Shown here: positions 21,703-25,916 of the stretch, in pieces
Position numbering within the stretch: position 1 is the stretch's first letter
Layout of the letters: every line of letters starts with the position of its first letter
DNA from: a virus
Taxonomy: Duplodnaviria; Caudoviricetes
IMG/VR virus record: IMGVR_UViG_3300016643_000249
Location: 7,358 to 71,357 of that record
Length of the DNA stretch: 64,000 nucleotides
Strand: one strand, 5' to 3'
Made by a program: the position numbers and the translations under genes
Notes under the pieces: generated by a model
Told to the model about the DNA's origin: nothing
Seen by the model: the letters and a program-made list of their open reading frames with translations, nothing else
The model's database searches: none

Positions 21703-21731
21703 TTGACAATCTAACCGTGTTGTGTTATAAT
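21703..21731 (+). promoter_or_regulatory. consensus sigma70 early promoter
   Basis: TTGACA-17-TATAAT with extended -10 TG. Confidence 0.9.
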
Positions 21732-22223: not shown

Positions 22224-22312
22224 GGGGGAGTTGCCCACCGAACCGAGTATTCTGGTAGTGTGCCGCTCATTCTTAAACAACAATGACTGTCGGGAGATAG
22301 CCAGAGTGCCCC
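22224..22312 (+). ncRNA. candidate structured RNA
   Basis: Nested GGGG/CCCC, TCTGG/CCAGA, CCG/CGG, TCATT/AATGA in a GC-rich intergenic island. Confidence 0.45.
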
Positions 22313-22341
22313 TTATCTAAACATATTATGGAGATTTTGTA

Positions 22342-22521
22342 ATGGTTCAAATGTTAAATGTAAGTGAAAAAGCTGCAAAGTTTATGATGGCAAAACCTGG
22401 TTCTTTTTTTGTTGTTCCAAAAAGTGCAGAAGTGCCATTTGAAACTTGTGCGAAGTTTGGTGTAAAATTATTTGTTACACCGATGCGTGATAAACCTTTT
22501 AAAGTAGTAAAACGAGTTTAA
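22342..22521 (+). CDS. 59-aa hypothetical protein
   Basis: GGAG RBS; MVQMLNVSEKAAKF...KVVKRV. Confidence 0.6.
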   Translation: MVQMLNVSEKAAKFMMAKPGSFFVVPKSAEVPFETCAKFGVKLFVTPMRDKPFKVVKRV

Positions 22522-22762
22522 TTGCCAGCCAGGGTAACGCTTGGCTACTGTGACCCGCAGGAAGAGAAATGAGTTCGTTACTCATGGGTGGTTCCATTCT
22601 ATGAGAAATAGAGTTGTCTCAAAAAGACAGGTCAAACCGAACCGGCGTTGGCAATACGAGAGTCCTTGGGTTGATAAGCGGATGGAAGGAGAAGCAGGTA
22701 AGCTGGTAGAGCTCTTGGCAGTAAGCCTTCTCTATATGTACCGCAGGTCCAAGGAAGCACCC
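22522..22762 (+). ncRNA. candidate two-domain structured ncRNA (about 240 nt)
   Basis: At least eight compatible helices (see findings); intergenic, GC above surroundings. Confidence 0.6.
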
Positions 22763-22781
22763 TTTACTAAGGAAATACAAT

Positions 22782-23075
22782 ATGAAAGATAGTGAAAAAC
22801 AAATCTTACTAATCTGCCAAGAAGAATGTGCTGAGGTCACACAGGCGATTAGTAAGGTTTTTCGTTTTGGTTATGATTCTGAATACAATGATAGAACTAA
22901 CCGTCAGCGATTAACCGAAGAAGTTGGTGATTTGCTTGCGATGATTGATTTGATGGTTGAATCAGGCATAGTTGATGAAGCAGCAATTGAAATGGCATCA
23001 GCGCAGAAAAAAATTAAGTTAAAACAATGGTCAAACATTTTTGATAAACCTAATTTAGAATTGGTAAAGAACTAA
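22782..23075 (+). CDS. MazG-like NTP pyrophosphohydrolase
   Basis: QEECAEV..AISK ... LTEEVGDLL. Confidence 0.8.
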   Translation: MKDSEKQILLICQEECAEVTQAISKVFRFGYDSEYNDRTNRQRLTEEVGDLLAMIDLMVESGIVDEAAIEMASAQKKIKLKQWSNIFDKPNLELVKN

Positions 23076-24730: not shown

Positions 24731-25407
24731 TGAAATCTTTTAATCATGTAAAACTAAGTGAATTGGACTTTGAGTTAGAATCCGAAACAACAGAATCGGG
24801 TAGGACTTATAAAACACCGGGAGGAAAGTCCTACCCATCCATCACAACCGTATTATCCAATTACAACAAAAAAGCAATCTACGAATGGCGTCAAAGAGTT
24901 GGTGAAGATGAAGCCAATCGCATTTCACGAGCCGCTTCTGGTCGTGGCACAAAGCTTCATAACGCTGTTGAGAAATATCTTTTAAACGAAATGACTGACT
25001 TGAAATATAAGTCAATGATGCCTGACACTAAAGAGTTATTTCTCAAAGTGAAGCCGTTCTTAGATAATCACATTGGCGACATATATGGCATTGAACAACC
25101 GTTGTATAGTGACAGATTGCATATTGCTGGTCGGTGCGATTGTATTGCACAATGGGAAGGCGAGTTATCAATTGTTGACTGGAAAACATCATCAAAAGTA
25201 AAAGAAAAAAGTTACATACAAAATTACTTTATGCAATGTGCGGCATATGCTGAAATGTTTGAAGAAAGAACTGGCAAACCAATCAAACAAATTGTGGTTG
25301 CCATTGCGGTAGAAGATTCTGATATGCCTTTAATTTTTATTGAAAACAAATCGGACTATCTTTTGCCTCTCCAAGAATACATTTTAAGATATAATAGTCC
25401 GATATAA
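24730..25407 (+). CDS. PD-(D/E)XK exonuclease (Cas4/RecB-like)
   Basis: YPSITTVL, RGT.LH, AGRCD, IVDWKTS, Q.AAYA.M. Confidence 0.88.
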   Translation: MKSFNHVKLSELDFELESETTESGRTYKTPGGKSYPSITTVLSNYNKKAIYEWRQRVGEDEANRISRAASGRGTKLHNAVEKYLLNEMTDLKYKSMMPDTKELFLKVKPFLDNHIGDIYGIEQPLYSDRLHIAGRCDCIAQWEGELSIVDWKTSSKVKEKSYIQNYFMQCAAYAEMFEERTGKPIKQIVVAIAVEDSDMPLIFIENKSDYLLPLQEYILRYNSPI

Positions 25408-25410
25408 ATA
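25403..25410 (+). promoter_or_regulatory. T4-type late promoter of tmRNA gene
   Basis: TATAAATA directly upstream of the acceptor piece. Confidence 0.75.
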
Positions 25411-25411
25411 T

Positions 25412-25736
25412 TGAATTCGTTGAAGATTGTTGAACGATGCGTTGGACGCCGGGGCAGTACCGGCCAGGTCCACCAAAAGCACATTTAAGGCCGCAGCGCC
25501 CACGATAATTTGCTGTAGTGTGCTTTTGATGGGCCTGACATAGTTTAGACAGCGTAGCAATTAGACAATTGGAGAATCGCCAAAGCTAAAGGCGTTAGGG
25601 TTGTGACAACACGGCCGAAGAAGCAGATAGTAACCGCAAACGATGAAAAGTTCGCATTAGCAGCCTAAACGCTGCTTAGGGTTTCGGTGGGTTTTGGCAC
25701 CAAGGGTGCCTTCCTCGTAACAGAAAAACTCCACCA
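25412..25736 (+). ncRNA. ssrA: circularly permuted (two-piece) tmRNA; tag ANDEKFALAA
   Basis: T arm GCCGG-GGCAGTA-CCGGC + CAGGTCC-A-CCA (to 25475); intervening segment; 5' end GGGCCTG at 25531 (G3.U70); tag ORF 25636-25668; outer ends approximate. Confidence 0.92.
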
Positions 25737-25757
25737 ATTCTTAATTAAGGAGATATT

Positions 25758-25916
25758 ATGAAATCGGTAGCACTCATCGCAGCATCGTTGTTCGCAGTAA
25801 CCGCTTTTGCACAAGCACCAGCGAAAAAAGAAGAGCCCAAGAAAGAAGCACCAAAAGCTGAAGTGAAAAAAGAAGCACCAAAAGCCGAAGCTAAGAAAGA
25901 CGAGAAAAAGAAGTAA
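25758..25916 (+). CDS. 52-aa secreted K/E/A/P-rich peptide
   Basis: AAGGAG RBS; signal MKSVALIAASLFAVTAFA then KKEAPKAE repeats. Confidence 0.8.
   Translation: MKSVALIAASLFAVTAFAQAPAKKEEPKKEAPKAEVKKEAPKAEAKKDEKKK

Follow-up and report, generated by a model that had tools for sequence, protein, structure and literature searches.

What is the element of ~240 nt that lies between two protein-coding genes at positions 22522 to 22762 of this phage DNA, and what could it be doing there? The window, i.e., the whole stretch of 64,000 nucleotides analyzed here, is a portion of a 71-kb IMG/VR record that is ~44% complete, and its large genes encode T4-type baseplate and tail proteins. A preliminary description, drawn from the letters of the DNA, had proposed that the element is a helix-rich noncoding RNA in two domains, possibly of an undescribed class.

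Setting of the window copy

The element is preceded by a 59-aa open reading frame (22342-22521, plus strand) and followed directly by a MazG-like gene of 97 aa (22782-23075, plus strand; Pfam PF03819). The RNA gene itself (22522-22762, plus strand) is covered whole by the family profile described below and comprises the family core and variable arms, ending with the tail GAAGCACCC. The Shine-Dalgarno sequence TAAGGA and the ATG of the MazG-like gene (22768-22784, plus strand) lie outside the RNA family, the ribosome-binding site being 6 nt from the 3' end of the RNA. The operon containing the RNA is headed by a sigma-70-type promoter with a perfect consensus (TTGACA-17-TATAAT with TG; 21703-21731, plus strand), and no terminator-like site was found on the plus strand between this promoter and MazG. 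Four tRNAs and a two-piece tmRNA were also detected in the window (Rfam and ARAGORN), the nearest tRNAs being 15 kb from the RNA.

DNA of this phage was found in freshwater, aquatic, wetland, and groundwater metagenomes (ten studies). The four runs examined for its natural variants consisted of DNA contigs, and none of the public runs listed for the phage was an RNA run. The tmRNA (25364-25759, plus strand; Rfam and ARAGORN) is permuted and encodes the tag peptide ANDEKFALAA; it is of the beta/alpha type, which suggests beta- or alphaproteobacterial hosts. Two other loci with the RNA (L120 and L110) have a tmRNA near their copy, and DNA of L087 matches the tmRNA region of the window.

The promoter at 21703-21731 precedes the gene of a lysine-rich 155-aa protein, the first of an operon that holds two RNA candidates. 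The second candidate, of ~85 nt and closed by GGGG/CCCC (22224-22312, plus strand), lies between the 155-aa gene and the 59-aa frame and is kept in the relatives L001, L003, L004, and L006. A 48-nt part of it is 90% identical to a segment located between tRNA-Cys and tRNA-Glu in an array of 19 tRNAs (L031:864-911). It has no Rfam match, and its covariation is weak over six sequences. There is also a weaker promoter-like site (TTGAAA-18-TAAAAT; 22439-22468, plus strand) within the 59-aa frame, ~55 nt upstream of the 22522-22762 element, which could give the latter a separate transcript.

A family of structured RNAs in freshwater phages

A search with the MazG protein gave 13 related viral loci, and two of them (L001 and L002) carried a diverged copy of the RNA at the equivalent place. 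Viral contigs and metagenomes were scanned with the best-conserved 18-mer, and the matches were then checked with the family profile (nhmmer). A second scan of viral contigs, using a different block, gave at least 120 matches and revealed variation within the 18-mer itself. The RNA family is carried by at least 112 distinct viral or metagenome loci, which confirms that the RNA predicted at 22522-22762 is a member of a conserved family of structured RNAs. The carriers are uncultivated T4-like freshwater phages. Members are 196 to 340 nt long and occur in one copy per genome. The window copy has all the core blocks in order (UGACCC, GAGAAGU-hairpin-GGGYGGUUC, the AACC loop, the GGCGYUGGCAAURCGAGA hairpin, and the GAAGCAY tail) and every covarying helix of the family.

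The family was searched for among known sequences and RNAs. Using blastn with three different members, we found no match in deposited phage genomes (INPHARED, August 2025). In 185,579 genomes of prokaryote species, searched with the exact core 18-mer only, there were 33 matches, none of which was a family member by profile. Three hot-spring metagenome contigs carrying the 18-mer two or three times (L069, L114, and L145) were likewise rejected by the family profile; the repeats in L069:1400-2300 belong to the gene of a TPR-repeat protein (...QQALAIREK...) and are a chance match unrelated to the RNA. The preliminary description had named an Rfam search as a check of novelty, and none of the 4,227 models of Rfam 15 matched the window RNA at the gathering score, nor did any match fall on it at E ≤ 10 in a search of 22300-23000. 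Sixteen other member loci gave, at E ≤ 1, only tRNAs, tmRNA, and chance matches elsewhere. ARAGORN detected no tRNA within the RNA, in line with the earlier remark that tRNA, RNase P, and group I core motifs are lacking, and the literature, searched by words and by core sequence, yielded no description of it. These results support the view that the family is an uncatalogued phage RNA, with no described class found in Rfam 15, the deposited phage genomes, or the literature searched, as had been suspected from the window.

A pseudoknotted fold supported by covariation

The family was assembled with nhmmer profiles and MAFFT alignments. We used two alignments, A2 (29 sequences) and A4 (87 sequences that are <93% identical to one another), both having the window copy as the first row. 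In A4, 97.2% of the pair cells held standard pairs, versus 34 to 46% when the 3' partners were slid, and two-sided changes were seen for 20 of 35 pairs (444 cells). Covariation scored 0.42, compared with 0.03 to 0.06 for slid partners, and none of 500 shuffles reached the observed values; A2 agreed with these results. Thirty-nine columns were invariant across the 87 sequences. It is these comparative data that exclude chance, since the fold of the single sequence was only modestly better than those of shuffled ones (-82.8 kcal/mol on the plus strand, z = -2.0, with 6 of 200 shuffles equally good; z = -1.5 on the minus strand). The plus strand is fixed by the frequent U-G pairs (e.g., in 57 of 87 sequences at one pair of H3), which become A-C when read on the opposite strand, and by the flanking tRNAs on the same strand. 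We infer from the sequences the transcription, the ends, and the stability of the RNA.

The predicted fold is pseudoknotted and not a nested set of helices. Its core consists of hairpins H2, H3, H4, H7, and H8, pseudoknots A and B, a contact between the loops of H2 and H4, helix P7, and the tail GAAGCAY; all the elements given below are on the plus strand. Hairpin H2 (22527-33/22540-46) has 7 pairs in the window, is paired in 99% of cases, and shows changes on both sides in all four pairs tested. Hairpin H3 (CUGU/GCAG; 22548-51/22557-60) is paired in 98.6%, with three of four pairs changing on both sides. Pseudoknot A (ACCC/GGGU; 22553-56/22586-89) takes its 5' strand from the H3 loop, GACCC. 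This pairing had been listed among helices that were all mutually compatible, which does not hold, because ACCC lies inside the H3 loop and the pairing is thus a pseudoknot. Pseudoknot A is paired in 100% of the 87 sequences. Its A-U pair is replaced by G-C in 7 sequences of a single clade, and its three C-G pairs are compatible with the data rather than proven, because they are invariant. The variable position 22589 (U/C) changes in concert with A/G at 22636 as well, again in that clade only, and an alternative register is conceivable.

Hairpin H4 (AUGAGU/ACUCAU; 22569-74/22580-85) has four of five pairs changing on both sides, and its loop makes a predicted kissing contact with the H2 loop GUAACG (22536-39/22576-79) in which two pairs covary (U-A 59 and C-G 19; C-G 56, G-C 19, and U-A 5). 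Pseudoknot B (GGUU/AACC; 22590-93/22635-38), whose AACC strand is in the loop of H7, is paired in 96% of cases with zero two-sided changes, and it is compatible with the data but not proven, because its pairs never vary. Hairpin H7 itself (GGU/ACC; 22630-32/22641-43; loop CAAACCGA) has a covarying closing pair (G-C 43, A-U 31, C-G 11, and G-U 2). It is followed by the most conserved block of the RNA, GGCGUUGGCAAUACGAGA (22644-22661). This block, formerly regarded as invariant, is itself a covarying hairpin, H8 (22646-48/22656-58; loop UGGCAAU), paired in 100% with U-A 57/C-G 30 and G-C 86/C-G 1. Helix P7 (22663-69/22749-55) occurs with 38 different strand sequences, and 85 of the 87 members have 6 to 9 of its pairs in an unbroken run; it was scored per sequence because two clades are one alignment column apart. 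Helix P8 (22675, 22678-81/22741-45) is paired in 100%, with three of five pairs changing on both sides. The 3' tail GAAGCACCC (22754-22762) is single stranded and conserved in all forms, short ones included.

Two other pairings were rejected. In a closing helix P1, of the 5' AACG with CGUU, the change of CGUU to CGCU is not followed by the 5' strand (A-C in 23 sequences), while the local H8 is compensated. The pairing of GGGUG with CACCC of the tail, suggested by RNAalifold, has one-sided changes only and is broken in the GGGC clade, although it may be an alternative state.

How does this fold compare with the one first read from the window? By direct check, all the complementary segments listed in the preliminary description are present in 22522-22762. 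AGCCAGG/CTTGGCT, ACCC/GGGT, ATGAGT/ACTCAT, TCCTTGG/CCAAGGA, and GCGG/CCGC are kept throughout the family with compensatory changes. TCTAT/ATAGA, TGTCT/AGACA, and GAGAAG/CTTCTC hold in the window, but these arms are variable or absent in many members. The closing helix TTGCC/GGCAA turned out to be specific to the window, with one of seven possible pairs kept across the family, and the AGCT/AGCT pairing is disrupted both in the nearest relatives and in a natural variant of this phage (GC>TA at 22711-12). H3, H7, H8 within the 18-mer, the GGUU/AACC pseudoknot, and the contact between the H2 and H4 loops had been overlooked.

Optional and variable parts

Arms H5 (22596-22614) and H6 (22615-22629), both on the plus strand, fold in the window and are variable in the family; ~30 of 87 members lack both, GGUUC being joined directly to the H7 region. 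Domain 2 (22663-22755, plus strand) comprises P7, P8, a conserved internal loop (AUGGAAG/UAUAUGUA), and a variable P9 arm (22689-22732, plus strand), the internal loop and P9 arm together lying within 22682-22740. Across members, P9 ranges from a 9-nt GAAA-capped stub up to 100 nt. In six loci (L028, L033, L100, L105, L106, and L128), domain 1 is intact and P8, the internal loop, and P9 are replaced by a plain extension of P7. The division into two domains thus stands for the window, but some members have a plain hairpin in the place of domain 2. Since H5, H6, and parts of domain 2 are dispensable, the constant part amounts to ~130 nt.

The apical loop of domain 2 in the window subtype contains an 8-nt palindrome, AGAGCUCU (22708-15, plus strand). 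These 8 nt read AGAUAUCU, likewise a palindrome, in four related members and in the natural variant with GC>TA at 22711-12. The P9 arm of many other members carries GUGAUG on its 5' strand and CUGAUG or UUGAUG on its 3' strand, adjoining a 5-bp stem (e.g., L085:2685-2931 and L111:8104-8393), and the window copy has no such motif. The GUGAUG...CUGAUG pair possibly resembles a kink-turn of the box C/D type.

Genomic context and probable exchange between phages

A tRNA gene on the same strand was present within 100 nt in 75 of the 112 loci listed (67%), and in 40 of them there was one on both sides. The other 37 loci listed, the window among them, have no tRNA within 100 nt. No tRNA was found on the opposite strand within 300 nt in any of the 112 loci listed. 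The flanking tRNAs are of diverse identities, in arrays of up to 29. The gaps between RNA and tRNA are mostly of few bases, the next tRNA starting 0 to 3 nt after the profile match and some overlapping it slightly.

The RNA is not always present at its site. In the relatives L003, L004, and L006, the stop codon of the 59-aa frame and the ATG of MazG are adjacent (TAA T ATG), and the RNA is absent. Contigs of one lake sample holding the window phage show the same state, with 22522 running straight into the MazG start, and RNA-bearing and RNA-free forms co-occur in one lake sample. Accordingly, the element exactly fills the gap between the two genes in the window, as first described, but as an optional insert. 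In a 124-kb relative (69% complete), the motif was absent from all the DNA examined. From these comparisons, the putative RNA gene is an accessory gene that some phages have at this site, others lack, and others replace with another subtype.

The similarity between copies is mosaic. The 3' half of the window copy (22631-22761) is 93 to 94% identical to the tRNA-array copies in L087, L097, and L126; other DNA common to the window and these loci is ~72 to 88% identical. Its 5' half is similar to that of L098 and L119 (~80%), and the copy at the orthologous site of L001 belongs to another subtype. Such mosaicism suggests that coinfecting phages have exchanged the RNA by recombination, and the 93 to 94% identity would fit recent exchange as well as strong selection.

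Putative function

We consider it reasonably probable that the element is an RNA gene of ~240 nt giving a stable, trans-acting RNA that is released together with tRNAs. In most of the phages, the RNA would be transcribed inside a tRNA array. The 5' and 3' ends of tRNAs are known to be processed by RNase P and RNase Z. An RNase P cut at the 5' end of the next tRNA would produce the 3' end of the RNA, whose 5' end would result from maturation of the preceding tRNA at the 3' side. Because the gaps to the tRNAs are small, this processing would free an RNA roughly as long as the conserved element. Once freed, it would act in trans, by binding a specific partner (a protein, a tRNA, or a component of translation or defence) or by catalysis. 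We favor partner binding or catalysis because the unpaired nucleotides of the core are invariant, to a degree seen in ribozymes and aptamers, and the peripheral arms are dispensable. Such tRNA-dependent maturation is not directly applicable to the window copy, since it has no flanking tRNA. Transcription from the strong promoter at 21703 would yield an mRNA containing this copy, which may stay attached or be cut out.

A bolder proposal, which we put forward tentatively and regard as unlikely, is that the doubly pseudoknotted core of ~130 nt represents a new functional class, perhaps a ribozyme, perhaps the RNA core of a particle acting on tRNAs, the translation machinery, or tRNA-directed host defence, and is an exchangeable accessory gene alongside the tRNA arrays of T4-like lake phages.

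Several other explanations could be considered. That the RNA is simply a ribozyme, e.g., a self-cleaving or processing RNA that cuts the transcripts of tRNA arrays or acts on tRNAs, seems to us rather improbable. A compact pseudoknotted core in which ~40 nucleotides, many of them outside helices, are invariant, together with dispensable arms, is an architecture typical of ribozymes, and the RNA is embedded in tRNA precursors. Nevertheless, no ribozyme of Rfam 15 (among them hammerhead, twister, pistol, hatchet, HDV-like, hairpin, RNase P, and group I) matched it, and self-cleavage is not needed, because the flanking tRNAs already supply sites for RNase P and RNase Z. More specific likenesses were rejected as well. 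The UGGC of the H8 loop as a binding site for the 3' CCA of tRNA was abandoned because many members have UAGC. Resemblances to RNase P CR-V, the T-box motif, loop B of the hairpin ribozyme, and the sarcin-ricin loop had no Rfam match, and each conflicts with covarying helices.

Self-assembly into a dimer or a larger particle made only of RNA is improbable. This idea comes from GOLLD (RF01998) and ROOL (RF03087), ornate pseudoknotted RNAs of phages and prophages that often lie by tRNA islands, have a conserved core with variable parts, and assemble into multimeric RNA-only particles (bioRxiv 10.1101/2024.12.08.627333). The genomic niche is common to all three (bioRxiv 10.1101/2024.12.08.627333), and the GC>UA double change in the apical loop of domain 2 turns AGAGCUCU into AGAUAUCU with the palindrome kept, such that one subtype's palindromic loop and its palindrome-preserving variant provide a weak lead toward self-assembly. 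However, the palindrome is confined to this subtype, most members having none, and taken per sequence it is no better than chance, since ~12 to 15% of shuffles reach it. Moreover, with 196 to 340 nt, the family RNA is far smaller than GOLLD or ROOL, which at ~500 to 800 nt are two to four times larger, and neither model of the Rfam library matched the window or 16 other members.

We give little credence to a cis-acting leader, riboswitch-like or a translational operator, controlling the MazG-like pyrophosphohydrolase gene. Like riboswitches and other leader RNAs, the window RNA ends just before a ribosome-binding site, that of MazG, and its conservation is of the grade of aptamers; unlike these, most family copies sit between tRNA genes with no coding gene downstream. 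Known riboswitch models of Rfam 15 did not match the window RNA. A MazG gene lies directly downstream, starting within 400 nt, in 16 of the 112 loci listed, window included (~10 to 60 nt in those inspected), the RNA being of the long form in some of these loci and of the short form in others. They share their neighboring genes, though, and therefore count as a single lineage, not as associations that arose independently. A small CCUU/AAGG hairpin that would cover the Shine-Dalgarno sequence of MazG can fold from the tail region in the window and in the L001 lineage, but at -1 to -5 kcal/mol it is only weakly stable, and several MazG-linked copies do not have it. Furthermore, the 67% of the loci listed that adjoin tRNA genes include many with no downstream protein gene, and the relatives L003, L004, and L006 have MazG without the RNA. 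Control of MazG in cis is thus unlikely to be the function of the family.

Finally, a protein-coding gene, a mobile element or intron, or a set of chance hairpins is very improbable: an 83-aa frame (22541-22792) is open in the window and the RNA comes and goes at one precise site, but the frame has no Pfam match, from one member to another the longest stop-free stretch shifts in frame and strand, and relative to the window 232 of 273 indel runs have lengths not divisible by three, so that conservation follows the base pairs and not the reading frame, as initially expected; the RNA interrupts no gene, and stop and start codons are adjacent at the empty site, so that no exon is split; no target duplication or terminal repeats were found at the site, no transposase or endonuclease is associated, there is one copy per genome, the intron models of Rfam 15 do not match, and covariation in A2 and A4 excludes chance hairpins.

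Comparison with known phage RNAs

The reading we prefer, a stable RNA released from tRNA arrays to act in trans, brings to mind rnaC (species 1, 139 nt) and rnaD (species 2, 119 nt) of T4. These non-tRNA RNAs are encoded on the same strand right behind a tRNA in a T4-type cluster, a niche like that of most family copies. Together, rnaD and rnaC follow tRNA-Arg and span 264 nt (AF158101 70908-71171), about the size of the family RNA. However, the family profile did not match the T4 region (AF158101 69000-75000; nhmmer, --max, E ≤ 10). T4 rnaC ends, by eye, in a tRNA-like T-arm sequence that the family RNA lacks; no tRNA-like 3' end was found within the window RNA by ARAGORN or the Rfam tRNA model. 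Unlike rnaC and rnaD, the window copy lies outside a tRNA cluster. Structured RNA candidates from IMG/VR phages (PMC10690425) come from the same source, i.e., intergenic regions, and include tRNA-like and uncharacterized motifs. Going by the sizes published for them, 29 to 151 nt, these candidates differ from the window RNA of ~240 nt.

Implications for phage biology

The tRNA arrays of phages are now viewed as tools against host defences directed at tRNAs and for codon supply. To our knowledge, the non-tRNA RNAs that accompany them (T4 species 1 and 2, GOLLD, and ROOL) have gone functionally unexplained for decades. The present family is strongly conserved and abundant in lakes, and its core of ~130 nt is small enough for structure determination and biochemistry. 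The forms with, without, and with a swapped subtype of the RNA at one locus would provide a natural comparison for tests of fitness or host range in a cultured host. The window copy, for its part, suggests that the RNA can also function, or at least be maintained, within an mRNA operon away from tRNA arrays.
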